Origin: Candidatus Fervidifonticultor sextus
GTDB taxonomy: Bacteria > Sysuimicrobiota > Sysuimicrobiia > Sysuimicrobiales > Humicultoraceae
DNA: 13,497 nt
Assembly: GCA_031459875.1 (NCBI GenBank)
Contig: JAVKHQ010000054.1
Span: 1-13,497, forward strand
Direction of reading: 5' to 3'
Position numbers and translations under genes: made by a program. This document shows positions 1 through 13,497 of this stretch, one piece after another. Every line of letters starts with the position of its first letter. The stretch's first letter is position 1. A model generated the notes under the pieces. That model ran no database searches, was not told the DNA's origin, and was given only the letters and a program-made list of their open reading frames with translations.

Positions 1-415
<415 letters not shown>

Positions 416-716
416 AAACCCTTGTGTTGCGACCTCCACTGGCGACAGTGGATGCCAAACTCGGCTGTATGCTGGGAACCCCGCAAGGATCCCGCGCTAC
501 CTGTGCAGTCTTTGCCGGCGTGTCCAGCGGCGTGCAGGTGACAACGCGGCGGGTGAGGCGGACAATCAGCAGGGAAGTCGCCCGTCGGGCGTGTGCGTGA
601 TGGGTTGACCCCTCAGAGACTACACGCCGACATCCCCCGATGGGCCGGCCGCAAGGGCCGGGTCCGGGGGGATGAAGAGATAGTCCGCGCCTCCAGGCGA
701 CTGGGGGAAACACGCG
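416..716 (+). mobile_element. Group I intron in 16S rRNA, inserted after U1498; 301 nt, no internal ORF
   Basis: Removing it restores gaagtcgt|aacaaggtagcc. The 5' exon ends in U (415) and the intron ends in G (716). P1: gtcgtaa 411-417 with ttgcgac 427-433, U415-G429 wobble at the splice site. P10: tgtt 425-428 with 3' exon aaca. P2: 435-452 with GCGA loop. P atgctgggaac (469-479) pairs with Q aatcagcagg (564-573). R tcagagactaca (613-624) and S aagagatagtcc (675-686) form P7. P3: tcggc 461-465 with gccga 626-630. P8: catccccc/gggggatg. P9: 690-707 with GCGA loop. Confidence 0.96.
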
Positions 717-761
717 AACAAGGTAGCCGTACGGGAACGTGCGGCTGGATCACCTCCTTTC
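717..761 (+). rRNA. rrs: 16S rRNA exon 2 (helix 45 and anti-Shine-Dalgarno tail)
   Basis: aacaaggtagccgtacgggaacgtgcggctggatcacctccttt. Confidence 0.98.
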
Positions 762-842
762 TAGGGAGAACATAGGGCCTGTCGTGTGTGCGGTGCACAC
801 GCTCCAGGTACCCGGCGGACTCCTTGCCACCATGGGGTTGTC

Positions 843-884
843 AAAGCGAACGCCCGCTCCGACAGGAGCGGGCGTCGTGCTTTC
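843..884 (+). terminator. Probable terminator hairpin ending the 16S transcript
   Basis: Perfect 11-bp stem acgcccgctcc-gaca-ggagcgggcgt (850-875), flanked by aaagc/gcttt; the U-tract is weak. It is preceded by ttgtcaaag (838-846), complementary to a boxA-type ctttgacaa leader and so probably the 3' strand of the 16S processing stem. Confidence 0.6.
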
Positions 885-956
885 GTCGCGTCCTGCCCTT
901 CCCCACAATCATTCCCGAACTCCATAGTGGTCGCTGCCGATGAGACTATTGAAGGG

Positions 957-1589
957 ATGGACGGCCGCGTGACCGCACCGCCTGCGCCAGAGCACGATTC
1001 GACGCTCGACGCCATCGAGACCGAGATCTCCCGTGCCACGGCGAGCGAGATCCAGGCCTATCTGCGTGGTGCTTCCCGAGACGGTACCTTCAACCGACTG
1101 CACAGGACGCTTCGGATCGCCCAAGCCGACCTCCGGTGGCTCCGGGTCCTCGGGGATCTTCTTGGACGACTTGGGAAGCGCAGTTGGCCCTCCCGCGAGG
1201 GTGCTCGACGCGTCTGGGTGATCGAGACGACCTGGCGCCCTGAGCGTTTGGCAACGGTCCGCACGAAAGGCGAAGCCGCCATGTTCGTTCGTGGCTACTT
1301 CGATACCGAAGGCGGAGTGCCGGCAGACAGCCGTGCCCGGTTCGACGTTCAGTTCGTCCAGAAGAGTCACGCGGACCTGGCTTACACCCGCGGCCTGCTC
1401 GAGTTGCTCGGAGTACGGTGCGGGCGGATCCATAATCCCAGCGCGAGACGAGACGCCGACGTCGGACCTTCGTCCCGCTTCCTTCATCCAATCCGCCGCC
1501 GACATGGAGGGGATGGTTCGATCATCTCCGCTGAACTGGTGCATACTTCGAGGCGGCCTGTTCTATGGGCCAGGCACCGGCACGGATGA
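957..1589 (+). pseudogene. Two-motif LAGLIDADG homing endonuclease, free-standing; homology breaks near 1460 and the frame runs on to a stop at 1589
   Basis: Motif 1 AYLRGASRDGT (1056-1088) and motif 2 MFVRGYFDTEGG (1281-1316), followed by beta-strand VQFVQKS and helix LAYTRGLLELLGV typical of the LAGLIDADG fold. After ~1460 the DNA belongs to an epimerase fragment in another frame. Start codon uncertain (ATG 957 or GTG 969). Confidence 0.8.
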
Positions 1590-1938
1590 CGCTTGGCGCA
1601 AGGCAGCCCGGGAAGGTACATTGCGCCTGCCCGCGGACGGTTCAGGTTTCGTTTCCTTGATCCACGTGGTCGATATGGCTCGCGCCATTGTCCGGACCGC
1701 TGAGGCCACCCCCGTACAAACGGTCTTCAACGTTGTTGACGACGAGCCTGTGACCTACCGGGACTTGTTTGGATACATAGCCGCTCAGGAAGGCGCCAAT
1801 CCTCCCGAACCCGGAGGCGATAGTGTGCTGCCTTCCCTAGCCTGCTCGAACTCAAGGATTCGCTCGGAACTGGGATGGTCGCCCGTATTCAAGACCTATC
1901 GCTCTGGTCTCGCAGCGTCCCACACAGCATCGGCCTAA
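1462..1938 (+). pseudogene. NAD-dependent epimerase/dehydratase (extended SDR), C-terminal fragment; integron cassette remnant
   Basis: ILRGGLFYGPG, SLIHVVDMARAI, VFNVVDDEPV and SNSRIRSELGWSP are extended-SDR motifs. There is no N-terminal GxxGxxG or start codon. The stop TAA lies inside the R'' box of the following attC. Confidence 0.85.
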
Positions 1939-2032
1939 CAACTCGATGGAGCCGACCCGGCCAGCTGCGAGGAATCGGGTCCATGATAGGCTCTAAGCGC
2001 TGGCCGGGCGGCTCATCTCGAGACCGTTAGGT
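1933..2032 (+). mobile_element. Integron attC site (100 bp)
   Basis: R'' gcctaac (1933-1939, RYYYAAC) and R' gttaggt (2026-2032, GTTRRRY). Arms gagccg-a-cccggccagc (1949-1965) and gctggccgggcggctc (1999-2014) pair with an extrahelical base at 1955. Confidence 0.9.
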
Positions 2033-2062
2033 TGATCCCAGACCAGAAGCGGGGAGTAGGAG

Positions 2063-2260
2063 ATGGAGTAAGGAGCCCACCTCTCGTTGGTCTCCTTCCG
2101 CGGTGAGTCGCGGACACTCGCAGACCTCCTTCACTTCACGAAATCCGCCCGCCCCAACGTGCCAAGTATCGCCGATGCGTTGGGCGGGCCCGGGTTCACG
2201 GGAAGGATCGTGTATCTGGAGGCAGGTAGCAGGACCCATCTCCCAGGCCTTGCGTGCGGC
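2063..2260 (+). pseudogene. Possible remnant of the next cassette gene (unknown function)
   Basis: SD aggag and ATG at 2063 just after the attC, with an in-frame TAA at codon 3; the frame then continues as the 2087 ORF and runs into the toxin gene. No recognisable homology. Confidence 0.3.
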
Positions 2261-2265
2261 TCGTC

Positions 2266-2550
2266 TCAGCCACGTCGCCGCTCGAGTATCGAGTACACGT
2301 CGCGCCGGTGGCGGATCGCCCATACGGTGACCGCCTGTGCCTCGATCTCATAGCAAATACGGTAGTCACCTACCCGGATTTTCCAGAGGCCGGACAGCGA
2401 ACGCCGAAGGCGCTCGCCGTATCTAGCCGGTTCCGTCATCAGCCGGGCCTCGATCGCCCTGACGATTCGTGTGCGGAGGTTCTGCGGGATGCGCGGAAGG
2501 TCTTCCTCCACGACTTCCGGCCTGTACAGCAGCGTATAGGGAGGGTCCAC
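2266..2550 (-). CDS. Type II toxin, RelE/ParE family (RelE/StbE-like mRNA interferase)
   Basis: 94 aa, basic; G..LR..LSGLWKIRVGDYRICYEI and IRHRRDVY motifs; directly downstream of the antitoxin. Confidence 0.92.
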   Translation of the reverse strand: MDPPYTLLYRPEVVEEDLPRIPQNLRTRIVRAIEARLMTEPARYGERLRRSLSGLWKIRVGDYRICYEIEAQAVTVWAIRHRRDVYSILERRRG

Positions 2551-2553
2551 CGG

Positions 2554-2790
2554 CTATCGGATGCCCAGCCGCCGCTTGAGCTCCTCATGAGGGATCGAGG
2601 GTGCGGGATTCGTCCGGCGTCGGTCGACGAGTTCCTCCAGCGCCGCGTCTTCCCGCAATTCCAAAGCCTCGCGGACGAGCTCGCGAACCTTTTGAGAGAG
2701 CGAGACGCCGTCCCGCCTTGCCAGCTTCTTGACCGCCTCGAAGAGGGGCGGTTCCAGCACCGTGTTAATCCTGGGATGCACAGAAGGCAT
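2554..2790 (-). CDS. Antitoxin with ribbon-helix-helix DNA-binding domain
   Basis: 78 aa; [37 protein letters not shown] (RHH), acidic middle, [12 protein letters not shown] tail; SD ggaggtg; 3 bp upstream of the toxin. Confidence 0.88.
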
Positions 2791-2808
2791 CGAATCACCT
2801 CCACGCGG

Positions 2809-2837
2809 AGTGTAACATAGGTGTTCAACCCTGTCCA
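2809..2837 (-). promoter_or_regulatory. Sigma70-type promoter of the TA operon
   Basis: Minus strand TGGACA-17 bp-TACACT with an extended -10 TG. Overlapping gtgtaaca/gtgttcaa repeats could be the RHH operator. Confidence 0.6.
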
Positions 2838-2875
2838 GCGATGCTCGTGTCGCGGAGACGGGTGCATCTTATCTT

Positions 2876-3290
2876 CACCCCTGCCCGTGCGGCCACCGGG
2901 GCGATCTGTCCCGGGAGTGCCTGTGCAGCCCGGCTCAGGTGGCCCGCTACCTGGCGCGGGTGTCCGGGTCGCTGCTGGACCGCATCGACCTGCACGTGGA
3001 GGTTCCCCGGGTCGCCGCCGCGGAGCTGGTCGCCGCAGGACCCAGGGAGAGCTCGGCACAGGATGCGGGCGCGGGTGCTGGCGGCCCGTGAGATCCAGGC
3101 CGGCGGCTACGGGGGCGCGCGCACCAACGGCGCGTTGAACGCCCGTCAGGTCCGGATCCTGAAGGTGGCGCGGACCATCGCCGACCTGGAGGAGGCCGAG
3201 TCCATCGCGGTCACCCACCTGGCCGAGGCGATCCAGTACCGGGCCCTGGACCGGTCGCTGCGGCTGGTGGGCGGGGGCAGGCCGGGGTGA
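2876..3290 (+). pseudogene. comM: YifB/ComM Mg-chelatase-like AAA+ ATPase, 3' fragment
   Basis: [33 protein letters not shown] from 2879, a +1 frameshift near 3060, then [16 protein letters not shown] and [21 protein letters not shown]. The N-terminal majority is missing and the segment normally between ARQV and RILKVART is deleted. The stop overlaps the dprA start. Confidence 0.9.
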
Positions 3291-4168
3291 GGAGGCTGCC
3301 CGGGCCGGTGGATGCCGTCGGTCCCGACGACCCCGGATATCCGGCGGCGCTGCGGACCATTCCCGATCCGCCGGCGCGGCTGTACGTCCGCGGGCATCTC
3401 CCGGGAGACGGCGCGGCGGCGGTGGCGGTGGTGGGGGCGCGGCGGGCGACAGTGTACGGGGTGGCCGTGGCCCGCCACCTGGCCGCCGATCTGGCCCGCT
3501 GCGGCGTGGCGGTGGTCAGCGGTCTGGCCCGCGGCATCGACGCCGCCGCCCACGAGGGGGCTCTGGACGCCGGCGGGCGGACGGTGGCGGTGCTGGGGTG
3601 CGGGCCGGATGTCGTCTACCCGCCCGAGCATGCCTCTCTGATGGCCCGGGTCATCGACGCGGGGGCGGTCCTGTCTGAATATCCACCCGGTACGCCCCCG
3701 CTGCGCCACCACTTTCCCCGACGCAACCGCCTGATCAGCGGGCTGTCCCTGGGCGTGGTGATTGTGGGAGGCCGAGAAGACAGCGGGGCCCTAATCACCG
3801 CCGACTGCGCCCTGGAGCAGGGACGGGAGGTGTCCGCGGTGCCGGGGCCGGTCACGTCCGCGACGAGCGCTTTGCCCCACCGGCTGGTGCAGCAGGGGGC
3901 CAAGCTGGTCAGGGGTGTGGAGGACATCCTCGAAGAGCTGCGCCTGCGGGTGCGTCCGCCCCCGGCGCCGCCGGCCGTGGCCCTGGCGGGGGCCGAGGCG
4001 GCGGTCTACGCGGTCCTGACGCTGGAGCCGCAGAGTCTGGACGCCCTGGTCCTGCGCAGCCGGCTGCCCGTCGCCGAGGTCAGCCGGGCCCTGGTGGCGC
4101 TGGAGCTGGCGGGGCTGGCGCGGGCGCTCCCGGGCCAGCGCTACGTGCGGACCGCCCCGGGAGACTGA
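3287..4168 (+). CDS. dprA: DNA-processing protein DprA (Smf)
   Basis: [63 protein letters not shown] and LVQQGAKLV motifs plus a C-terminal winged helix; canonical position after comM; lacks the N-terminal SAM domain. Confidence 0.95.
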
Positions 4169-4222
4169 AGGCGCCCGTGACAGCGCGCCACGGCCGCACG
4201 ATGCACGGTTGGGGGGAACACG

Positions 4223-5476
4223 ATGCGCGCCCGGTGTGAGATCTGGATTGGGCCCGGCGAGGCGGGCAGGCTCGTCGTGCGCTTTTGCTACAGTCCCGAA
4301 GGCATCGCGAGGATCAAGACGATCCCCGGCCGCCACTGGCATCCGGAGGGAAAGTACTGGACAGTTCCTCGGACCGACAGCGCCCTCGCGCGTCTGCTGG
4401 CGGTGTTCGCCGACCGTCCCGTTGCGGTGGACCCTGCGCTTCGGCCTGGAAATCACCGCCATGATCAGGTCACGCCGGCCGCCGCGGCGGCTCCTCACCC
4501 CTTGCCCGGACCACCAGGGGTCCTGGGTCGGGTCCGCGAGGCTCTCCGCGCCCGCCACTACAGCCGGAGGACCGAGCAGGCCTATGCGGCCTGGGTTGCC
4601 CGATTCGTTGAGTTCCACGGTGGGCGCGACCCCGGCCAGTTGGGTGAGCGGGAGGTCAACGCGTTCCTGACCCACCCGGCCCTGAGCACACGTGTGGCCG
4701 CCTCGACGCAGAACCAGGCCCTGGCCGCCCTCCTCTTTCTGTACGACGGCGTGCTGCGTCGCCCGTTGGGCCGGGTCGAAGGAGTCGTGCGGGCGAGGCG
4801 CCCTCGGCGGATGCCGGTCGTGCTGACCCGCGAGGAGGTCAGAGCGGTTCTGGACGGTCTCGACGGGACCACGCGCCTGGCCTGCGCGCTGCTGTACGGC
4901 TCTGGGCTGCGCCTGCTGGAGTGCCTGCGTCTGAGAGTCAAGGACATCGACTTCCAGCGCAACGAGATCACCGTCCGTGACGGCAAAGGCGGCAAGGATC
5001 GGGTGACCATGCTGCCGGCGACCGTCAAGGCGTCGCTGCAGGCGCACCTGGAGAAGGTGCGTCGCCAGCACGAGGACGACCTGGCCCGAGGTCTCGGATG
5101 GGCCCCGCTGCCGGATGCGCTCGCCCGTAAGTACCCCAGCGCCGACCGCCAGTGGGCCTGGCAGTGGGTCTTCCCGGTGTCGTCGCATTACGTTGATGCC
5201 CACACCGGCGTGCGCCACAGGCACCATCTGCACGAATCGGTGATTCAGCGGGCGGTGAAGGAAGCCGTTCGCCGGGCGGGGCTGACGAAACCCGCCACGT
5301 GCCACACCTTCCGGCATTCGTTCGCCACACACCTCTTGGAAGACGGATACGATATCCGGACGATCCAGGAGCTGCTCGGACACAAGGACGTGAAGACCAC
5401 GATGATTTACACTCACGTGCTGAACCGCGGCGGAAAGGGCGTCCGGAGCCCGATGGACGGGCTGCACCCCGGTTGA
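4223..5476 (+). CDS. intI: Integron integrase (tyrosine recombinase) with ~100-aa N-terminal extension
   Basis: [42 protein letters not shown], the IntI-specific insertion [52 protein letters not shown] and [16 protein letters not shown]; catalytic R-K-H-R-H-Y intact. Confidence 0.97.
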
Positions 5477-5494
5477 GTCCTGCTGATCTTGAGG

Positions 5495-5660
5495 GTGCTA
5501 GACTGACCGATCAGACAGTATAATACCTGGCAAGGAGGCCGGGGCAGGATGAGGGGAATTCAGATAGGACGCGTGACCGCCGGGGGGCCCGGGCGTCTGA
5601 CCCCGTCGTGTTAGGCTGACAAGAGCGGGGTGTTAGACTGGTCTGTGTAAACACAAGGGG
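5495..5660 (+). mobile_element. Probable attI region downstream of intI
   Basis: Three direct repeats gtgctagactg (5495-5505), gtgttaggctg (5608-5618) and gtgttagactg (5630-5640), two containing GTTRRRY. These are followed by taaacacaag (5648-5657), resembling attI1 taaaacaaag|tt. A perfect TATAAT lies at 5519-5524 without a good -35. Confidence 0.55.
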
Positions 5661-5667
5661 GCGTTCA

Positions 5668-5769
5668 ACCTGACAAGGTGCTGCAGCCGTCGAGCCGCTC
5701 CCGTGGGAGTCGAAGCAAGGCAAGCGGCGAGCCGCGCGTGGCCCGCGGGTGAGCGCCAAGGCGTCGGGC
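5668..5769 (+). mobile_element. Degenerate attC site (102 bp)
   Basis: R'' acctgac (5668-5674) and R' gtcgggc (5763-5769). Arms ggtgct-g-cagccg-t-cgagccgc (5677-5698) and gtggcccgcgggtgagcgcc (5738-5757) pair with two extrahelical bases and a few mismatches. Confidence 0.7.
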
Positions 5770-5788
5770 GGCTCGGAACCACAATCAA

Positions 5789-6076
5789 ATGGTTGATACA
5801 CGTGTTCAACTAGAGGTCGAAGACTGGGTGCGCCAGAACTGGATGCCGAAGCAGTTTGGGCAGCAGTTCCGACGCGAGCGAATTCGACTTACTTCCGGCG
5901 GCTTCACCGTGCTCACGGATCCCGGCATGCACCAGCTCTGTCTCAAGGAGAAAGAGGGCGCCCGAGTACCACCTTCAATCGAGTTCCGGCTCGCGCCGGT
6001 CCCAACGGAGCTTCATGAGAGTCTGCGCCGCGCGCAGAGCGCCTCGCGAGAAGTGCGCCCGAGGCGTGACACATAA
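5789..6076 (+). CDS. Hypothetical cassette protein, possibly internally deleted
   Basis: 95-aa ORF starting 20 bp after the attC, protein-like composition, less GC-biased codons than the flanking genes. The abrupt change at SGGF|TVLTD suggests a missing middle. Confidence 0.6.
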   Translation: MVDTRVQLEVEDWVRQNWMPKQFGQQFRRERIRLTSGGFTVLTDPGMHQLCLKEKEGARVPPSIEFRLAPVPTELHESLRRAQSASREVRPRRDT

Positions 6077-6137
6077 TCGGCAGGGCCGCCTGACCAGCGC
6101 ATAAAGCCCTGCTCTACGGGGCTAAAGAGGGTTTCCG

Positions 6138-6993
6138 ATGAAAGACTGGCAGGTCAAAGTAGGTGGCGACCGTGAGCTCGCGTGCACAGATATTGGTGAG
6201 CGCGGTTGGCCCTGCGTTTTGTTCTTCCACGGTGCGCCCTCGAGCCGCCTGCGCCTCGCCTACCTGGAACAACAATTTTCTAGCCGAGGGCATCCGGGTT
6301 GTCTCACCCGATCGCCCTGGCTACGGGAGGTCGTCGCCGCAGCCGGGTCGGGCGATGACCGATTGGCCCTCGGACGTCGCTGTCCTCGCGGATGCGCTGG
6401 GACTCGGCCGCTTTGTCGTTGCCGGCCACTCGGGCGGTGGTCCATATGCGGTGATGTGTGCCGCGCTGCTCCCGGAGCGTGTGTCGGCAGGCATCATCCT
6501 GGGTGGCGTGACGGACATGGGGTGGCCCGACGCCTGGAAGGGGTACCTCGACAGCGAGGTTCTTCTCATGCGCATGCCTGACGAGGAAGCGGCTATCGCC
6601 TGGTGCGTGGAACGCTATGGCGCAGACGGGAGTGGGTTCCTGTCCGCATCTGGTATCGCGTTTACGGGACCCGACGCGCGACTGTATGCGGACGAAGAGG
6701 TCGCGCCCCTTCTGGCTTCGTCTCGTGCTGAGGCCTTTCGGCAGGGCGTGGCAGGATACGCTCAAGACCTCTTCATCCAGGGCCGCCCGTGGCCGTTCGA
6801 CCCAGGCACTATCACCTCACCGATCCATGTCGTCCACGGTGCGTTGGACACACTCCTCCCCCTGGCACACAGCCGCCACACCGCGGAAGTGGTTCCGGGA
6901 TCTATTCTGCGCGTGTTTCCCGCACATGGGCACTTTACCATCCTGAGTGAGCTCCCGACGATGGCGTCGGCTTTGGTGCGTTCGTTGTCCTAG
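6138..6993 (+). pseudogene. Alpha/beta hydrolase split by a single frameshift
   Basis: MKDW..VLFFHGAPSSR in the 6138 frame continues as GIRVVSPDRPGYGRS, GHSGGG (nucleophile elbow), HGALD and HGH in the 6163 frame. Removing one T from tttt 6276-6279 joins them. Confidence 0.88.
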
Positions 6994-7081
6994 GTCAGGA
7001 TGCTGACGCTCGCATCCCCGCTGATCACGGGCTGATGCGGGCGTACACGGTCGGAGCCTATCGGTGGGCTGGAGGGATATG

Positions 7082-7843
7082 ATGTACCGGACGGACATGT
7101 ACGAGGGAATGCTCGCGGAGACCGTCACGGTTCACGGCGCGGGCGGCGACCTCATCACCGCCTACGTCGCCCGGCCGCTGGGTCCCGGGCCCTTTCCCGG
7201 CATCGTCGTGATCCACCACATGCCCGGCTGGGATGAGTGGTACCGCGAGGCCACGCGGAGGTTCGCCCATCACGGCTACGCGGCGCTGTCGCCCAATCTC
7301 TACCATCGCGACGGCCACGGGACCCCGGAGGACGTGGCGGCAAAGGTGCGGGCCGCAGGCGGGGTTCCCGACGACCAGGTGGTGGGCGACGTGGAGGGGG
7401 CGATGCGCTATCTGCGCTCGTTGCCCTACCTCAACGGCAGGGTCGGCGTGTTCGGTACCTGCTCGGGGGGCCGGCACGCCTTTCTGGCGGCGTGTCGGGT
7501 GAGCGGGTTTGACGCGGCGGTGGACTGCTGGGGTGGGCGCGTGGTGATGTCGCCGGAGGAACTCACGTCGAAGCAGCCCGTGGCTCCCATCGAGTACACC
7601 AAGGACCTTTCGTGTCCGCTCCTGGGCCTCTTCGGCGAAGAGGATCGGAGCCCCTCGCCAGAGCAGGTCGGCCTGCACGAACAGGAACTCCAGAAACACG
7701 GCAAGACCTACGAGTTCCACATGTATCCGAACGCGGGGCATGGCTTCTTCTACTACGACCGGCCGGCCTACAGGCCGCAGCAGGCGGTGGACGGGTGGCA
7801 GAAGGTGTTTGCCTTCCTCGAGAAGTATCTCAAGACGCCGTGA
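7082..7843 (+). CDS. Dienelactone hydrolase family protein
   Basis: PGIVVIHH, GVFGTCSGG (nucleophile Cys), LGLFGEED and YPNAGHGF; SD ggaggg at 7071-7076. Confidence 0.93.
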   Translation: MYRTDMYEGMLAETVTVHGAGGDLITAYVARPLGPGPFPGIVVIHHMPGWDEWYREATRRFAHHGYAALSPNLYHRDGHGTPEDVAAKVRAAGGVPDDQVVGDVEGAMRYLRSLPYLNGRVGVFGTCSGGRHAFLAACRVSGFDAAVDCWGGRVVMSPEELTSKQPVAPIEYTKDLSCPLLGLFGEEDRSPSPEQVGLHEQELQKHGKTYEFHMYPNAGHGFFYYDRPAYRPQQAVDGWQKVFAFLEKYLKTP

Positions 7844-7880
7844 GTGTGCGCGAGATGTTCGTCCGAAAGGAGCACGACAC

Positions 7881-8171
7881 GTGTGCACCATGATCGTGAG
7901 GCAGGTGGCGGTTGAAGGCTGCGGCAGGGGAGCCGCCGGATGGTTCATGGTGCGGCAGGCCAACGTGTCCTATGACCATCCCTTCCACGCGCCGCTGGAA
8001 CACGCGCTGAACATCGACTTCGTGGACGAAGGGGGGGACCCCGGGGCGCGGGTGGCCGTCGAACTCACCGCAGCGTCGGCACGCGCGTTGGTCGAGGCAA
8101 TCCTTGCCGTGCTCGGCCGTGCAGAGGCGGGTGGGTACCTGGACCCGGAGACAACGTCCCGTGGCGTCTGA
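7881..8171 (+). CDS. Small conserved protein, DUF6295-like
   Basis: GTG start after SD aaaggag; MCTMI..G.GRG..GWF..V.YDHP.HAPLEHALNIDF..RVAVEL pattern. Family name recalled, not searched. Confidence 0.75.
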   Translation: MCTMIVRQVAVEGCGRGAAGWFMVRQANVSYDHPFHAPLEHALNIDFVDEGGDPGARVAVELTAASARALVEAILAVLGRAEAGGYLDPETTSRGV

Positions 8172-8208
8172 AGAGCTGCCGTCGACTCCTATCGTGTGAG
8201 GGTGAGAC

Positions 8209-9183
8209 GTGAAGCTCGAGGGCATCCACCACATTACAGCCGTGACCGCCAACGCACCCGGGAACGTCGAGTTCTACACGCGCGTGCTGGGCCTGCGCCT
8301 GGTTAAGAAGAGCGTCAACCAGGACGACCCGACCGTCTACCACCTTTTCTACAGCGACGAACGGGGAAGCCCGGGCGCGGACCTGACCTTCTTCGAGTAC
8401 CCCGGCGCGGAGCGCGGCCGTCCCGGGGCCGGGATGGTCCACCGCATCGTGTGGCGGGTCGCGTCGGAGGAGGCGCTCGACTTCTGGCAGGCCCGTCTGC
8501 GGGGCGAGGGGATCGCCTCGCGGCGCGAGGACGGTCGGCTGGTCTTTGACGACCCGGAGGGGCTGGGATTGGAGTTGGCGCTCGACGAGGGCCGCGACGC
8601 GCCCCTGGTGGCCGACCACCCCGAGATCCCCTCCCGCCTGGCCCTCCGGGGGTTTGCCGGCGTCCGGGCCTACGCCGCGGATCCGGAGGGCAGCCGTCAT
8701 TTCCTGGAGCAGGCGCTGGGGTTCGTGCGCACAGCCGAGGACCGCTACGAGGTGCGCGGCGACCACCGCGGATCTTTCTATATCTACGATCGCACAGCCG
8801 AGCCGGGCCGCAGCGGCGCCGGCACGGTCCATCACGTGGCCTGGACTTCCACCATGGAGGCGCACGCTGCGTGGCGGCGCCGCGTGCTCGAGGAGGGCGG
8901 GTCGCCCACGCCGGTCATCGACCGCTACTACTTCCGTTCGATCTACTTCCACGAGCCGAGCGGCGTCCTGTTCGAGATCGCCACGGACGGCCCCGGCTTC
9001 ACGACCGACGAGCCCCTCGAGCACCTCGGCGAGCGGCTGGCGCTGCCCCCGAAGTTCGAGCCGCTGCGCGAGCGCCTCGAGCAGATCCTGACGCCGTTGC
9101 GGAACCCGCGCGAGGGCGCGCCTGTGACGACCGGCCCTCCTCCTTCGACGCCGCCTGCAGGGCCGAACAGGTTGCGGCGCTGA
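8209..9183 (+). CDS. Ring-cleaving dioxygenase / glyoxalase (VOC family, MhqO-like)
   Basis: GIHHITA, FYTRVLGLRLVKKSVNQDDP..YHLFY, GTVHHVAW and DRYYFRSIYFHEPSGVLFEIATDGPGF. Confidence 0.93.
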   Translation: MKLEGIHHITAVTANAPGNVEFYTRVLGLRLVKKSVNQDDPTVYHLFYSDERGSPGADLTFFEYPGAERGRPGAGMVHRIVWRVASEEALDFWQARLRGEGIASRREDGRLVFDDPEGLGLELALDEGRDAPLVADHPEIPSRLALRGFAGVRAYAADPEGSRHFLEQALGFVRTAEDRYEVRGDHRGSFYIYDRTAEPGRSGAGTVHHVAWTSTMEAHAAWRRRVLEEGGSPTPVIDRYYFRSIYFHEPSGVLFEIATDGPGFTTDEPLEHLGERLALPPKFEPLRERLEQILTPLRNPREGAPVTTGPPPSTPPAGPNRLRR

Positions 9184-9300
9184 GGGCGGGAGGGCGTCCG
9201 GGAGGCCGCCTGTGGGACGCGCCGCGGTCGCCCAGGGGAGCTGCGAGAGGACGGCGAATGCGAGGCCTCGTCGAACCCCCCCACCGAGGAGGACTCCTGG

Positions 9301-9873
9301 ATGACGCAGGATCAAGGGCCGTCGGCTCGCAGAGAGGTGGCCACGCTGGCGGGTGGCTGCTTCTGGTGTCTGGAGGCGGTGTTCAACGACCTGCGGGGGG
9401 TGGAGCGGGTGGTCTCGGGGTACGCCGGCGGCACCGTGCCCAACCCCACCTACGAGCAGGTCTGCACGGGGACGACCGGCCATGCCGAGGTCGTCCAGGT
9501 GACCTTCGACCCGGAGGTCATCTCGTTTCGGGAGTTGCTGGAAGTTTTCTTCACCATCCACGACCCCACCACGCTCAACCGGCAGGGACCCGATGTCGGC
9601 ACCCAGTACCGATCGGCCATCTTCTACCACACGGCGGAGCAAAAGGCGACCGCCGAGCAGGTGATCCGGGACCTAGCGGCTTCCGGCCTGTGGCGCGACC
9701 CGATCATCACCGAGGTCGCCCCGTTGGAGGCCTTCTACCCGGCCGAGGCGTACCACCAGCGGTACTTCGAGCGCAACCCCCATCAACCGTACTGCCGGAC
9801 GGTGATCGCCCCCAAGGTCGCCAAGTTCCGCCGGCAGCACCTGGCCAGGCTCAAGCAGGCAGCCGGATCCTAG
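9301..9873 (+). CDS. msrA: Peptide-methionine (S)-S-oxide reductase
   Basis: GGCFWCLE, SGYAGG, TGHAEVVQ, HDPTTLNRQGPDVGTQYRSAIF and AEAYHQRY; SD gaggagg. Confidence 0.98.
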   Translation: MTQDQGPSARREVATLAGGCFWCLEAVFNDLRGVERVVSGYAGGTVPNPTYEQVCTGTTGHAEVVQVTFDPEVISFRELLEVFFTIHDPTTLNRQGPDVGTQYRSAIFYHTAEQKATAEQVIRDLAASGLWRDPIITEVAPLEAFYPAEAYHQRYFERNPHQPYCRTVIAPKVAKFRRQHLARLKQAAGS

Positions 9874-9886
9874 GGGCCAGCCTGTC

Positions 9887-10396
9887 ATGCCTGCCCAGGC
9901 CTTCCAGGACGCCTACCCCGACGCGCTGAGCCACTGCTACGGTTGCGGCCGGCTGAACGAACACGGCCTGCACCTCAAGAGCTACTGGGACGGCGACGAG
10001 ACGGTCGCCGTCTTCTCCCCGAAGCCCTACCACACGGCGATCCCGGGCTACGTCTATGGAGGGCTGATCGCCTCGCTGATCGACTGCCACGGCACCGGGA
10101 CCGCCGCCGCCGCCGCCTACCGGGCCGCCGGACGGGCGTTGGGGAGCGATCCGCCGCTGCGTTTCGTCACGGCTTCGCTGCGCGTGGACTACCTCCGTCC
10201 GACGCCGATGGGCGTGCCGCTGGAGATCCGGGGGCGGGTCAAGGAGATCACGGGGCGCAAGGTCGTCGTTGAGGCCACGGTCTCGGCCGGCGGGCAGGTG
10301 TGCGCGCGGGGCGAGGTCGTGGCCGTCCAGTTGCCCGAGCACCTGGTGCCCAAAGAGGGTGGAGGCTATAGCCGTTGCGACGCTGGGTCGGACTGA
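9887..10396 (+). CDS. PaaI/hotdog-fold thioesterase
   Basis: CYGCGRLNEHGL, GYVYGGLIASLIDCH and VTASLRVDYLRPTP. Confidence 0.9.
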   Translation: MPAQAFQDAYPDALSHCYGCGRLNEHGLHLKSYWDGDETVAVFSPKPYHTAIPGYVYGGLIASLIDCHGTGTAAAAAYRAAGRALGSDPPLRFVTASLRVDYLRPTPMGVPLEIRGRVKEITGRKVVVEATVSAGGQVCARGEVVAVQLPEHLVPKEGGGYSRCDAGSD

Positions 10397-10439
10397 GAGG
10401 AGTCCGGCCTCGGGCGCGACGGATCTCGGGGCGGATCCC

Positions 10440-10991
10440 GTGCGGCTCGACATCCCCAACCCCTCCCTGGTGGTGCTCTGTGGTCCGGCCGGCAGCGGGA
10501 AGACCACCTTCGCGGCCCGGCACTTCCCCCCGACCGCGATCGTGTCCTCGGACCGCTGCCGTGCCATGATCGCCGACGACGAGCGCAACATCGCGGTCTC
10601 CCGCGAGGCGTTCGAGCTCTTCCACCTGATCATCGACCGCCGATTGCGCTTCGGGCGGCTCGCGGTCGCCGACAGCACGGCCCTGCGGCGCGATGCGCGC
10701 CGCGCATTGCTCCAGATCGGCCGCCGCCACGGCGTCCCGGTCATCGTCATCGTGTTCGATGTCTCGCTGGAGCGCTGCTTCCATCACGACACGCTCCGCG
10801 ACCGCCGCGTAGGGCGTGCCGTCATCGAACGGCACGTCCGGCTGCTGCAGGACACGCTGCGGACCGTCGCGGATGAGGGGTTCGATCGGGTCGTGATCCT
10901 GGACGAGGTGCTCGCACGTCAGACCTCGGTGGTCCTCGGAGGGAGTCCCCCTCGGCGTTCCGGAGACCAGGGGCCGCCGCCGGCGCCCTGA
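10440..10991 (+). CDS. P-loop kinase (AAA_33), similar to the kinase module of bacterial Pnkp; start uncertain
   Basis: LVVLCGPAGSGKTTFA, IVSSDRCR, AFELFHLIIDRRLRFGRLAVADST. Confidence 0.85.
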   Translation: MRLDIPNPSLVVLCGPAGSGKTTFAARHFPPTAIVSSDRCRAMIADDERNIAVSREAFELFHLIIDRRLRFGRLAVADSTALRRDARRALLQIGRRHGVPVIVIVFDVSLERCFHHDTLRDRRVGRAVIERHVRLLQDTLRTVADEGFDRVVILDEVLARQTSVVLGGSPPRRSGDQGPPPAP

Positions 10992-11123
10992 GACTGGCCA
11001 GGGGAACCCCTGTCGTCTGTCGAACGGGCGGGAAGGGATTGTCCGCATGGGGCGCGCCGTGGCACCGGACCTGGCGATCGAGCCCGGACGCATCGCAGCC
11101 GTCCTGGGGATGGGGTCGGCGGC

Positions 11124-11687
11124 GTGACGGGGGCCGAACCGATCTCCCGGCAGGTCGGCGGCTGCCGCCTGACGCTCGTCCAGGGGGACATCACCACCCA
11201 GGAGGTGGACGCTATCGTCAACGCCGCCAACAGCCGGCTGGTCGGGGGCGGCGGGGTCGACGGCGCCATCCGCCGGGCCGGCGGACCGGCCATCGAGGAG
11301 GAGTGCGCGGCCATCCGGGCCCGCCAGGGCGGGTGTCCGACGGGGTCGGCGGTCATCACGGGCGCCGGGAGGCTCCCGGCCCGATACGTCATCCACGCCG
11401 TCGGGCCGGTCTGGCAGGGAGGCAGCCACGGCGAGGCGGACCTGCTGGCCTCGGCCTACCTGGCCAGCCTGGCGCTGGCCGCCCGGCACGGGGCCCGGAC
11501 CGTCGCCTTTCCGTCCATCAGCACCGGCGCCTACGGCTACCCGGTCGAACAGGCCGCCCGGGTAGCCCTCCGGACCGTCGCAGAGGTCTTGAAGGAGCAG
11601 GCCTTCGACGAGGTCCGCTTCGTCCTCTTTTCGCCGAAGGATTACCACGCCTACGCCGAGGCGCTGCGCGACCTGCCGCCAACCTGA
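11124..11687 (+). CDS. Macrodomain protein (O-acetyl-ADP-ribose deacetylase, YmdB-like)
   Basis: GDITTQEVDAIVNAANSRLVGGGGVDGAI, VIHAVGPVW and AFPSISTGAYGYP. Confidence 0.95.
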   Translation: MTGAEPISRQVGGCRLTLVQGDITTQEVDAIVNAANSRLVGGGGVDGAIRRAGGPAIEEECAAIRARQGGCPTGSAVITGAGRLPARYVIHAVGPVWQGGSHGEADLLASAYLASLALAARHGARTVAFPSISTGAYGYPVEQAARVALRTVAEVLKEQAFDEVRFVLFSPKDYHAYAEALRDLPPT

Positions 11688-11768
11688 GGCCCCTGCAGGA
11701 GGTCGTGGGGACGGCGGGTAAGTGGAAGGCCAGACGAGGAGCAGGCATCCCTGCCGGAGGTGAGGACC

Positions 11769-11996
11769 GTGGTCTCAGCCGTGGTGCTGCTGAAAGCCGC
11801 TCCGGGCCAGGCCCGCAAGGCCGCGATCGCCATCAGGAAGATCAAGGGCGTGCGCCAGGTCCACGTGGTCACCGGACCGTACGACATCATCTGCATGACG
11901 GAGGCCGGGACCATGGCCGCGCTGGGGGACACCGTCATTACGAAGATCCAGCGGACCCCCGGGGTGACCGACACGCTCACCTGCCTCGTCGTCTGA
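11769..11996 (+). CDS. Stand-alone Lrp/AsnC ligand-binding domain protein
   Basis: IKGVRQVHVVTGPYDII and IQRTPGVTDTLT; SD ggaggtgagg; no HTH domain. Confidence 0.85.
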   Translation: MVSAVVLLKAAPGQARKAAIAIRKIKGVRQVHVVTGPYDIICMTEAGTMAALGDTVITKIQRTPGVTDTLTCLVV

Positions 11997-12016
11997 AGTG
12001 GTCATGGACCCGGGTG

Positions 12017-12044
12017 TTGACAACCCCGATGCCCCTACTATAAT
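12017..12044 (+). promoter_or_regulatory. Consensus sigma70 promoter upstream of the 23S unit
   Basis: TTGACA (12017-12022), 16-bp spacer, TATAAT (12039-12044); a 16-bp spacer is typical of rrn promoters. Confidence 0.9.
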
Positions 12045-12129
12045 GGGTTGTGGCCTGAACACGGGGAGGGATTGGTGCTGAGGTCGCCAACCGGGTAAAC
12101 CGAATACGGTGTACCCGATGAGCATCCCG

Positions 12130-12158
12130 GAGGGGAGACGGCTCATCCCCTCTTTTTT
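12130..12158 (+). terminator. Intrinsic terminator between the promoter and the 23S leader
   Basis: Stem gagggga (12130-12136) with tcccctc (12146-12152), followed by tttttt (12153-12158). Confidence 0.75.
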
Positions 12159-12199
12159 GTGTCCCGTCCCCGCAAAGCCGTACGAGCATGCCTCAATGT

Positions 12200-12266
12200 T
12201 CCTGCCGGCGGGCCCGGCAGGATCCGACGCGCGGAGTCCGCGGCGGGGCGCACCTTGACAAGTGAA
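12200..12266 (+). promoter_or_regulatory. 23S leader: boxB-like hairpin and boxA/processing-stem sequence
   Basis: Hairpin tcctgccgg-cgggc-ccggcagga (12200-12222) and gcaccttgacaagtgaa (12250-12266), resembling rrn boxA/processing stems. Confidence 0.55.
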
Positions 12267-12356
12267 GATGGACGAAGACATCCCGCCCGCGGGTGGAAAC
12301 GGCACCGGCGGGAGGAGGATGTGTTGCCAGGCTCTATACAGCTGCTCCTAGGGCGG

Positions 12357-13497
<1,141 letters not shown>

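Follow-up and report, generated by a model that had tools for sequence, protein, structure and literature searches.

A truncated LAGLIDADG endonuclease gene behind an intron-bearing 16S rRNA gene: a candidate decayed copy of a two-part rDNA element homing in trans

Why should a LAGLIDADG homing endonuclease gene stand just behind a 16S rRNA gene whose own intron, a short distance upstream, holds no open reading frame? The arrangement is found in a 13,497-nucleotide stretch of contig JAVKHQ010000054.1 from the hot-spring bacterium Candidatus Fervidifonticultor sextus, the whole of which was analysed and is called the window here. An earlier note on this DNA had proposed that the enzyme cut intron-less 16S alleles near position 1498, that the intron shielded its own allele by splitting the target, and that both parts spread by co-conversion. 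On the whole this interpretation is supported, and the reading that we favour, with modest confidence and from sequence comparison, is that the window probably holds the decayed copy of a two-part rDNA mobile element homing in trans, or "collaboratively".

The contig begins within the 16S rRNA gene, with positions 1-440 matching Rfam RF00177 at model positions 1076-1533. The 3′ part of exon 1 (1..415, plus strand; model positions 1076 onward) is collinear with the intron-less 16S gene of genome G012, and its last base, U415, is the equivalent of E. coli U1498. A 301-nt group I intron that holds no ORF follows at this 16S position 1498 (416..716, plus strand); its match to the Intron_gpI model (RF00028) spans 406-707 and reaches 48.0 bits (E 3.8e-11), slightly below the gathering score of 50, and homologous introns in relatives score 54.3-62.1 bits in five cases out of six and 49.0 in the other. 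As read from the letters, its P1 helix pairs the exon bases GUCGU with the internal guide GCGAC and has a U-G pair at the 5′ splice site. The 3′ terminal base is G716 and exon 2 starts at 717 with AACAAGG, the boundary carrying a 2-nt ambiguity because intron and exon 2 both start with AA. Among 13 homologous ORF-less introns, the P1 pairing (GUCGU before and AA after the splice site, against GCGAC) and the terminal G before AACAAGG are both invariant (13/13). Their alignment yields 67 predicted pairs in RNAalifold, 32 of them with pair-keeping changes on both sides, and the P7 strands AGACU and AGUCC, whose pseudoknot RNAalifold does not model, are conserved in sequence. That the intron lacks an ORF, as first claimed, holds in so far as no ORF with a Pfam match lies within 416-716, the P8 hairpin being ORF-free.

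The only assembled 16S 3′ end of this genome is the intron-bearing one, from which we infer that the intron is removed, and neither a second intron nor a second endonuclease copy was found elsewhere in the genome. Public read data comprised the contigs of one RNA run and three DNA runs. The RNA contigs cover the intron and a relative's gene in part, at depth 2-5, and the intron-less junction at 417 occurs as loose contig ends in both RNA and DNA contigs, which may be those of other organisms, since spliced RNA is indistinguishable in such data from other organisms' intron-less 16S.

Exon 2 (717..762, plus strand; AACAAGGTAGCC...GGATCACCTCCTTTCT), with the anti-Shine-Dalgarno end, is identical to the 16S 3′ end of G012 and is matched by the Rfam SSU model at 723-747. 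Behind it, on the same strand, the native 16S trailer leads through a conserved hairpin (850-875) into a leader with the motif GGTCGCTGCCGATGA (929-943), the whole occupying 763..956. As far as the hairpin, the trailer has its homologue in G012, a genome that lacks both intron and endonuclease gene, and the leader motif also precedes the empty sites and the copy in G001 described below. What had been called a terminator hairpin was confirmed as a hairpin, with an 11-bp stem kept in position and showing compensatory changes across relatives, but the terminator scan made no plus-strand call at 850-875. A promoter scan of 700-2100 gave 0 sites and thus none before the endonuclease gene, which this terminator-like hairpin precedes. 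The window was found to hold no second copy of exon 2 and no trailer repeat. As the earlier note had seen, the 16S gene is unlinked: the 5′ part of the 23S rRNA gene (12358..13497, plus strand; RF02541, 877.8 bits) begins 11.6 kb downstream of the 16S end, and in G012 the two are likewise unlinked, at a distance of 18.7 kb.

The endonuclease gene itself (957..1460, plus strand) starts 240 nt after the end of the intron and on the same strand, so the two-motif LAGLIDADG gene lies where it had been placed. Its start may be ATG 957 or GTG 969, within an open frame of 786/957-1589, and the product scores 35.8 bits (cut-off 22.5) with Pfam LAGLIDADG_3 (PF14528), a full-length relative (L003) reaching 40.6. 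Both LAGLIDADG motifs are kept, as AYLRGASRDGT and FVRGYFDTEGG, and over 168 residues the protein is 89% identical to the full-length protein of locus L017. In an alignment with eight full-length relatives, homology stops after RRDAD, at residue 168 and nt 1460, leaving codons 1-168 of about 211. The rest of the open frame (1461..1589, plus strand) is a non-homologous tail that runs out of frame through an epimerase fragment to the first stop, its DNA matching the epimerase gene region of G058. It forms the start of a 2.77-kb mosaic (1461..4228) that replaces the 3′ end of the gene and in which Pfam and NCBIfam recognise the 3′ part of an NAD-dependent epimerase gene (to about 1938), a ParE/RHH pair on the minus strand (2266-2790), a ComM C-terminal fragment (2841-3290) and dprA (3287-4168).

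The limits of this mosaic are set by comparison with L017, L004 and L005, with which the window is collinear across 1-1460 and again from 4229-4236 onward; L011 is 87% identical to bases 1460-1969 of the window. Collinearity resumes at an integron-type integrase gene (4223..5476, plus strand; TIGR02249, 472.6 bits against a cut-off of 265), whose orthologue in L017 starts 8 nt past the endonuclease stop codon. Contigs of two public DNA runs, which may come from the source sample, bridge nt 1460 without differences. Mapped on the L017 model, the truncation removes the strand 170-174 and the helices 176-185 and 191-202, so that the complete two-domain alpha-beta-beta-alpha-beta-beta-alpha fold, present in the model of the full-length relative, is absent here, and three nearly invariant residues are also replaced (Y79S, A117T, Y130D). 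The earlier note's inactivation by truncation is thereby borne out, and, judged by its reading frame, the copy in the window is dead, a pseudogene of its family with no function of its own.

What kind of enzyme the family encodes had to be sought by fold, since a sequence-profile search of solved structures reached I-DmoI alone, at E 0.42. For the full-length L017 protein, the AlphaFold model (pLDDT 92.7) finds its best solved matches in I-Tsp061I (PDB 2dch, E 1.8e-8) and I-DmoI (PDB 2vs8 and 1b24, E 6.8e-8), with TM of about 0.6. These are monomeric two-motif LAGLIDADG enzymes encoded in archaeal rRNA introns, and they resemble the family studied here in size, at about 190-210 residues, and in having both motifs on a single chain, but sequence identity to them is only about 17%; both are encoded in archaeal bulge-helix-bulge introns at other rRNA sites. 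Together with the LAGLIDADG_3 match, the fold upholds the assignment to LAGLIDADG enzymes. WhiA-like regulators and inteins, which the earlier note had named as contexts that would speak against its reading, appear as distant structural matches only: the WhiA N-terminal domain ranks 19th (E 6.6e-7), and PI-PfuI and the TliVMA intein match through their endonuclease domains alone. WhiA-type features are absent, the acidic residues being conserved and the 211-residue protein containing no further Pfam domain; so are intein features, as the ORF, free of any Hint domain, stands by itself between the rRNA trailer and the gene that follows.

Where relatives carry the gene bears directly on how it came to lie outside the intron. 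From 121 confirmed relatives in public genomes, DPANN and CPR loci among them, 80 related loci were kept; in 63 of these the gene lies within the P8 loop of the same intron, again at this 16S site, in agreement with the expectation that homologues would sit inside 16S introns at 1498, in 16 it lies outside, just behind the 16S trailer, and in one elsewhere. The window, L004 and L005 are further loci of the outside form. In inside-type loci exon 1 runs up to the intron, and exon 2 follows immediately on the gene. An nhmmer profile built from the ORF-less introns is split in 52 of the 62 inside-type loci classified by the exon 2 motif, matching over positions 1 to about 204 ahead of the gene and over about 223-282 behind it, so that the gene falls within P8 of a homologous intron. 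The same profile matches at full length in outside-type loci, and a full-length ORF-less intron lies upstream of the gene in 13 of the 16, as it does in the window.

The outside form comprises a bacterial clade (Sysuimicrobiota/Armatimonadota-labelled and Actinomycetota) and a separate archaeal one (Thermoplasmatota). In a tree of 83 proteins, 13 outside rows, the one free row and one inside row form a single clade with support 96/90, the four archaeal outside rows fall elsewhere, and the outside rows make up one clade in 0 of 200 bootstrap trees. Taken together, the evidence suggests that the gene began inside the intron and did not arrive as a standalone invader. Each host group has its own trailer sequence between exon 2 and the gene, so the whole unit was not simply carried from phylum to phylum; rearrangements within each group may have produced the outside arrangement independently. 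A crossover between ORF-less and ORF-bearing alleles was considered as a source of the outside form and set aside, as L019 and L076, two loci with a displaced second exon 2, hold no 3′ intron remnant between gene and displaced exon.

The same host-specific trailers could also be read as the mark of a relic, a gene expelled from the intron by local rearrangements and not yet decayed everywhere, which mobilises nothing and keeps company with the intron through shared descent. The outside form is confined to few lineages, being present in 11 of 93 other genomes of this class (12 of 94 with the window's own; a search across the 94 added no loci to those already found), and degenerate copies are many (the window, L040, L048, L096, G015, G020, G021, G006, G029 and G030). 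Yet the intact outside copies of three genera show dN/dS of 0.28-0.33, and in a 47-sequence family alignment the motif-1 aspartate D42 is nearly invariant and the motif-2 glutamate E118 invariant; the outside form is, by its substitution pattern, under purifying selection with its catalytic residues kept. Presence and absence are, moreover, patchy, both states being found within single genera, no intact copy lies beside an intron-less 16S gene, and the exon 2 duplications taken up below start exactly at the intron site in two loci. We therefore regard the relic as unlikely.

Association with the intron was counted directly. Intact outside copies with an assembled junction stand beside an intron-bearing 16S gene in 12 cases out of 12, and ten damaged copies do so in six and lack the intron in four (Fisher P = 0.029, on rows that are not independent). 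From the side of the host gene, 28 relatives have the end of exon 1 assembled, and the endonuclease gene or its remains occur in 7/10 of those with the intron as against 4/18 of those without it, these four being dead. The proposed survey of relatives accordingly returned co-occurrence that is present and patchy, and homologues behind intron-less 16S genes, which the earlier note had listed as evidence against itself, do occur (G021, G006, G029 and G030) but are pseudogenes or remnants in all four cases. The intron without the gene was found in three relatives (G004, G046 and G052), and a congener, G001, carries the gene away from any assembled 16S, the one copy counted elsewhere above. An intron tree (68 rows, 282 columns) left 32 of 65 inner branches unsupported and raised long-branch warnings; being poorly resolved, it was not used to judge co-transfer of intron and gene.

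Purifying selection alone would also fit a protein domesticated by its host, serving as an intron maturase, a role that LAGLIDADG proteins have in organelles, or as a DNA-binding regulator of the kind suggested by the structural match to WhiA. The intron is nevertheless retained in loci with a truncated, degenerate or missing gene (the window, G015, G020, G004, G046 and G052), in the window at the only assembled 16S 3′ end, which indicates that splicing is independent of the protein; the catalytic acidic residues are conserved, and 211 residues leave the protein with no extra helix-turn-helix domain. Domestication thus appears quite improbable to us.

A different alternative takes the intron at 1498 for an unrelated passenger and has the gene home to an intergenic site of its own behind the 16S gene. 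Members of family f1 invariably carry it between the 16S trailer/leader and the integrase gene, and G004 and G008 have empty versions of this site, which could be never occupied or precisely deleted. Such constancy would fit this alternative. The insertion context nevertheless differs among Sysuimicrobiota, Actinomycetota and archaea, and what the enzyme family shares is the context of 16S position 1498. The intron stands beside all 12 intact copies, and the duplicated exon 2 starts at 1497 and not at the point where the gene is inserted. We hold homing to an intergenic site to be improbable, somewhat more so than the relic.

These duplications are found in two cases, L019 and L076, both from metagenome assemblies. 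Each has a second copy of exon 2 and trailer after the endonuclease gene (in L076, after the gene and a DUF4440 ORF), and in both the displaced exon 2 starts GT/AACAAG, with the slash at the intron site, that is exactly at G1497, and follows an unrelated left-hand sequence. The second exon 2 is thus an apparent scar of a break at the intron site. Direct repeats around a gene would equally be expected if it were cargo in an island or cassette of the integron-type integrase, with the exon 2 repeats as attachment-site repeats like those of tRNA-gene islands, and an integrase gene does come directly after the endonuclease gene in L017, L004 and L005, and in the window it is found 2.77 kb downstream. 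In L019 and L076, however, there is no integrase between or beside the repeats, which measure 123-200 nt and, exon 2 apart, have diverged by about 12-15%, unlike a short core of identical sequence. At 19 loci of the outside or free type, 157 long open frames were listed downstream, and in the 83 of them run against Pfam no integrase or other common neighbour appeared; these 83 did not include the integrase frames of L017, L004 and L005. Of the alternatives weighed, integrase-borne cargo seems to us the least credible.

On the favoured reading of homing in trans, the two parts would be the ORF-less group I intron and the free-standing LAGLIDADG gene behind the 16S trailer. The enzyme's cut in intron-less 16S DNA would fall on position 1498 or beside it, with GTAA (1497-1500) as the probable 4-nt overhang, and repair from an allele that has both parts would copy the intron in each time. 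The endonuclease gene, some 130-240 nt further on, would be co-copied when the conversion tract is long enough, and the intron, by splitting the target, would shield its own host allele. In a recipient without homology past the endonuclease gene, repair may end by joining to the broken end, which would produce a displaced second exon 2 starting at G1497. The window would then represent the end of such a cycle, with an intact intron whose removal the only assembled 16S 3′ end presumably still requires, and with the last 43 or so codons of the endonuclease gene lost to a 2.77-kb insertion next to an integron-type integrase gene.

More tentatively, and at less than even likelihood, the homing endonuclease gene may have shuttled repeatedly, in bacteria and archaea and mostly outward, between P8 and its place behind the 16S gene. 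The free form would still home through the break at 1497-1500 with its central GTAA, dragging the ORF-less intron along, and would, where downstream homology is lacking, install a replacement 3′ exon and displace the resident exon 2. If this were true, the exon 2 scars of L019 and L076 would be a direct record of the cleavage position, and the loci would form a natural series of steps linking free-standing endonucleases and composite mobile introns.

Collaborative homing has been proposed, from two phage systems, as a route by which endonuclease genes and introns are united into one mobile element; we found no published description of homing in trans in cellular rDNA. The loci assembled here offer material for the question in cellular rDNA: dozens of natural cases from two domains, in which a single family of enzymes occurs both within and beyond the same intron, along with empty sites, dead copies and what look like scars of breaks. 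With this one family it becomes possible to test, for instance, in which direction introns and endonucleases become associated, how long co-conversion tracts are and whether introns protect. A 301-nt insertion within the 1492R primer site, together with a selfish gene after the 16S gene, is also easily missed or mis-assembled in surveys.

The displaced exons recall other mobile elements. An element of the Allomyces mitochondrial atp6 gene is reportedly a mobile endonuclease ORF that brings a replacement 3′ gene end, and homing of T4 introns is said to produce exon duplications through illegitimate double-strand-break repair. As in the Allomyces element, L019 and L076 have the functional 3′ exon before the endonuclease gene and the displaced copy after it; unlike it, this state is limited to two outside-type loci, not including the window, and the host gene is an RNA gene with an intron at the junction.

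The intron itself belongs to a site already described, as group I introns of IB4 type at SSU position 1498 in archaea (Nawrocki, Jones and Eddy 2018, PMC6125680) and as 16IS10 group I introns with LAGLIDADG_3/_2 genes in CPR bacteria (Tsurumaki et al. 2024, PMC11270868). Compared by description and in the available portions of these sources, they share with the introns studied here the 16S position, the kind of intron and a LAGLIDADG_3 gene inside most of them. In the same portions, genes are intron-internal or introns ORF-less, and the word "free-standing" is absent from the 2024 text and "downstream" from the 2018 text.

The closest parallel to the arrangement as a whole comes from phages, where collaborative homing has been described, in the portions of the sources available, for the free-standing F-CphI and an ORF-less psbA intron of cyanophage S-PM2, for the DNA polymerase intron of T7-like phages and a neighbouring HNH gene, and for T4 mobE and the I-TevIII intron (Hausner et al. 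2014, PMC3984707; PMC2790892). As far as these descriptions go, the likeness lies in a presumed target at the intron insertion site and in an intron that would protect its own allele and travel by co-conversion; the differences are that those systems occupy phage genomes and use HNH or Endo VII-like enzymes, whereas the present one lies in chromosomal rDNA of bacteria and archaea, has a LAGLIDADG enzyme and is known from sequence. In contrast to the phage systems, the relatives of this enzyme lie inside the same intron, so its probable course was out of the intron and not into it.

The window, which is the entire contig C50 of a metagenome-assembled genome (3.05 Mb, 67 contigs, 96% complete), starts within a 16S rRNA gene and finishes within a 23S gene. 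Its 16S match stops after GAAGUCGU and picks up 301 nt further on with AACAAGGUAGCC...GGAUCACCUCCUUUCU, the 46-nt exon 2 at 717-762. The segment between them, 416-716, gives an end-to-end match to the Rfam group I intron model (48.0 bits, E 3.8e-11, against a gathering score of 50). In P1, the guide GCGAC faces the exon end GUCGU with a U-G pair at the splice site, and the final intron base is G; since intron and exon 2 both start with AA, the boundary is uncertain by 2 nt. Counting from the 1492R primer region, we take the site to be E. coli U1498. This placement fits the insertion point that Nawrocki et al. 2018 (PMC6125680) list as “SSU/1498” for group I introns of archaea. When 13 homologous ORF-less introns, drawn from three host groups, were aligned, 67 pairs were predicted, and 32 of these show compensatory changes; the window intron looks intact. 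As the interrupted 16S 3′ end is the only one found in the assembly, we infer that the intron is removed by splicing. The 16S and 23S genes are unlinked, as the earlier note had stated, with 11.6 kb between them (762-12358); the gap is 18.7 kb on contig 1 of the nearly closed related genome G012, and no 23S gene was found within 2.5 kb in the Actinomycetota and archaeal loci that have the endonuclease gene behind exon 2.

Behind exon 2, a trailer hairpin with an 11-bp stem (850-875) is followed by an ORF with a Pfam LAGLIDADG_3 match and a likely start at ATG 957 or GTG 969, so that the combination of an ORF-less intron and a two-motif LAGLIDADG gene behind the 16S gene is as the earlier note described it. 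Acidic residues are kept in both motifs. No promoter-like site was found upstream of the gene, and a terminator-like hairpin precedes it. Full-length relatives have about 190-240 residues and a C-terminus of the form ...NPSxRxDADYWRFYVLAASHxxFxxxVGSWHPRKRxLL; the window copy matches them up to RRDAD (residue 168, nt 1460) and no further. In an AlphaFold model of the full-length protein of locus L017 (pLDDT 92.7), this truncation takes away two helices as well as a strand of the second DNA-binding sheet. Besides, three residues are replaced at sites at least 90% conserved among 47 family members, and dN/dS against the L017 gene is 0.52, compared with 0.28-0.33 among intact copies. Because of the truncated fold, the replaced residues and the elevated dN/dS, the window copy is a pseudogene, a dead remnant, in keeping with the inactivation by truncation proposed before.

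The window is collinear with three loci of related endonucleases (L017, L004 and L005) over 1-1460; collinearity resumes at 4229-4236, where an integron-type integrase gene begins (window 4223-5476, L017 3144-4424; TIGR02249, 472.6 and 453.1 bits). The gap is filled by 2.77 kb of foreign DNA, a mosaic in which 1460-1969 shares 87% identity with a stretch of an epimerase gene from another genome in the same order; behind it come a ParE/RHH pair, a ComM fragment and dprA. Contigs from two DNA runs span the 1460 junction without differences. The mosaic extends exactly from the truncated endonuclease gene to the integrase start, and in three genera the integrase gene lies directly 3′ of the endonuclease gene; the insertion may have involved the integrase or its attachment site. 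An imperfect 22-nt palindrome centred on GACGTC (window 1443-1478) falls exactly on the breakpoint (1460) where the endonuclease gene meets the epimerase fragment.

The end of exon 1 was assembled in 28 of 60 relatives of the order. Ten carry the intron, and their endonuclease gene is intact in five (including G049, where it is split over two contigs), degenerate in two and not found in three. Co-occurrence, which the earlier note proposed to survey, is patchy. Of the 18 intron-less relatives, none has an intact gene: one holds a pseudogene with two TGA stops, one a short fragment, two a remnant of about 100 nt, and in 14 none was found. Homologues behind intron-less 16S genes, which the earlier note had counted against its reading, thus exist, but all are dead. 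The two remnants (G029 and G030) include the last ORF codons. Across assembled junctions, the intron adjoins all 12 intact outside copies versus 6 of 10 damaged ones (Fisher P = 0.029, the rows being related by descent), which is in line with the idea that an active enzyme would be tolerated solely in hosts whose target sequence is split by the intron. Presence and absence of the intron both occur inside single genera (g1, g3, g4 and g8), and the junction from leader to integrase is clean in G004, with the intron, and in G008, without it. Class-wide, 12 of 94 genomes, the window's own included, have a match, in two families only. This distribution is one of gain, decay and loss, as expected for a homing element. 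Occupied, decayed and empty sites can be seen as a full series inside one family. A match in the relative G058 was rejected as an epimerase tail, and the unpublished genome G013, included in the tallies of relatives and class, is the basis for no claim.

A profile search over one genome per species returned 121 loci encoding relatives of the enzyme, of which 80 were retained, their 16S segments being located with the rRNA genes of the intron-less G012, exon motifs and an nhmmer profile of ORF-less introns. In 63 of the 80, the gene lies within the intron that separates exon 1 from exon 2, the placement at 1498 that the earlier note proposed to look for in homologues; in 16 it lies behind exon 2, and in one it is away from any 16S gene. 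The intron profile is split by the gene in 52 of the 62 loci classified as inside by the exon 2 motif, with positions 1 to about 204 upstream of it and about 223-282 downstream; this puts the gene in the P8 loop, within a homologous intron that occupies the same 16S site. Since relatives are mostly encoded in this intron, the most economical reading is that the family would recognise the intron-less 16S sequence around 1498. Hosts of the inside form include Solirubrobacterales, Dormibacterota, Chloroflexota, Omnitrophota, many CPR groups and DPANN archaea, and the CPR form corresponds to the 16IS10 introns with LAGLIDADG_3/_2 proteins of Tsurumaki et al. 2024 (PMC11270868), with a putative match in position. 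In three inside loci (L020, L023 and L024, about 2440-3100 in each), ORF and ribozyme core overlap: the conserved J6/7-P7 segment encodes the N-terminal TPQRLHAE, and the stop is a TGA within the conserved GGATGAAGATATAGTCC of J8/7. Five loci (L022, L027, L031, L040 and L073) carry a second 16S insertion of about 270-880 nt near G012-reference position 784, probably another group I intron site given weak intron-profile matches in L040, L031 and L073.

Beyond the window, the outside form occurs in relatives of Candidatus Fervidifonticultor (NCBI lineage Candidatus Sysuimicrobiota, formerly CSP1-3; hot springs), a set of Actinomycetota genomes and four Thermoplasmatota archaea. The archaeal loci (L082, L083, L092 and L096; Methanomassiliicoccales-type) have the same ORF-less intron at 1498 and the gene behind a trailer hairpin and T-run, an archaeal counterpart of the window arrangement. 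In a tree of 83 proteins, the window's clade comprises 13 outside copies, one free copy and the inside copy L020 (support 96/90), and the archaeal outside copies form a clade of their own. Outside copies formed a single clade in 0 of 200 bootstrap trees, so that at least three state changes are required; the outside form recurs and is maintained. The inside form occupies all remaining branches, with the same fusion of ORF and ribozyme core everywhere, and on these grounds we infer, the protein tree being unrooted, that it is ancestral and the outside form derived; L020 would then be a survivor of the ancestral state or else a reversal. A tree of the introns did not resolve their branching. The trailer between exon 2 and the gene is native to each host group and is shared with G012, which has neither intron nor gene; the unit was therefore not transferred wholesale across phyla. 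A 3.2-kb contig labelled Bryobacteraceae (Acidobacteriota; L048, JAIMAR010000330.1) carries a Sysuimicrobiota-type 16S trailer and the endonuclease gene, and is probably mis-binned. The free copy (locus L026, in which it spans about 2460-3140; contig C88 of the congener G001) is diverged yet open, with no 16S gene within 2.5 kb, and is preceded by the 15-nt leader motif GGTCGCTGCCGATGA, as is the window's gene (929-943).

In two metagenomic loci, exon 2 occurs again as a displaced second copy. The endonuclease ORF of L019 passes directly into such a copy with 75 nt of trailer; identity to the first copy is 100% in exon 2 and about 85-88% in the trailer. In L076, where the 16S gene has no intron and the endonuclease gene is dead, the order is endonuclease gene, DUF4440 ORF and a second exon 2 copy with about 200 nt of trailer and leader. 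Both second copies start GT|AACAAG, corresponding to G1497, with unrelated sequence to the left, and the intron profile detected no 3′ intron piece between gene and copy in either locus. These two cases suggest repair of a break at the intron site, in which one broken end would have copied the donor up through the endonuclease gene and then, because downstream homology was lacking, been joined to the remaining broken end. A LAGLIDADG-type cut leaving a GTAA overhang (1497-1500) would be expected to give a right-hand product that starts at G1497. The DUF4440 (SnoaL-like) ORF, at 3128-3502 between the dead gene and the displaced exon 2, may be donor DNA brought in with the element.

Every comparative test that was run backs the interpretation offered earlier, and the comparisons point to a trans-homing mechanism in which a separate endonuclease would mobilise the neighbouring ORF-less intron. 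The interest lies in the arrangement across the family and not in the window's dead copy. Our search, which covered literature outside subscription journals, found no paper in which a LAGLIDADG gene follows a 16S gene that carries an ORF-less intron, and the arrangement goes without mention in the group I intron database paper (PMC11835236) and the Sysuimicrobiota paper (PMC11604079). Of the unrelated contexts considered in the earlier note, the free copy in G001 is one real instance, but WhiA and intein endonucleases are only distant fold matches, remoter than I-Tsp061I and I-DmoI, to which the fold is closest. Collaborative or trans homing is known from cyanophage S-PM2, a T7-like phage and T4 mobE, as reviewed in PMC3984707. 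The window-type system, set behind a cellular 16S gene, would work in the same way.
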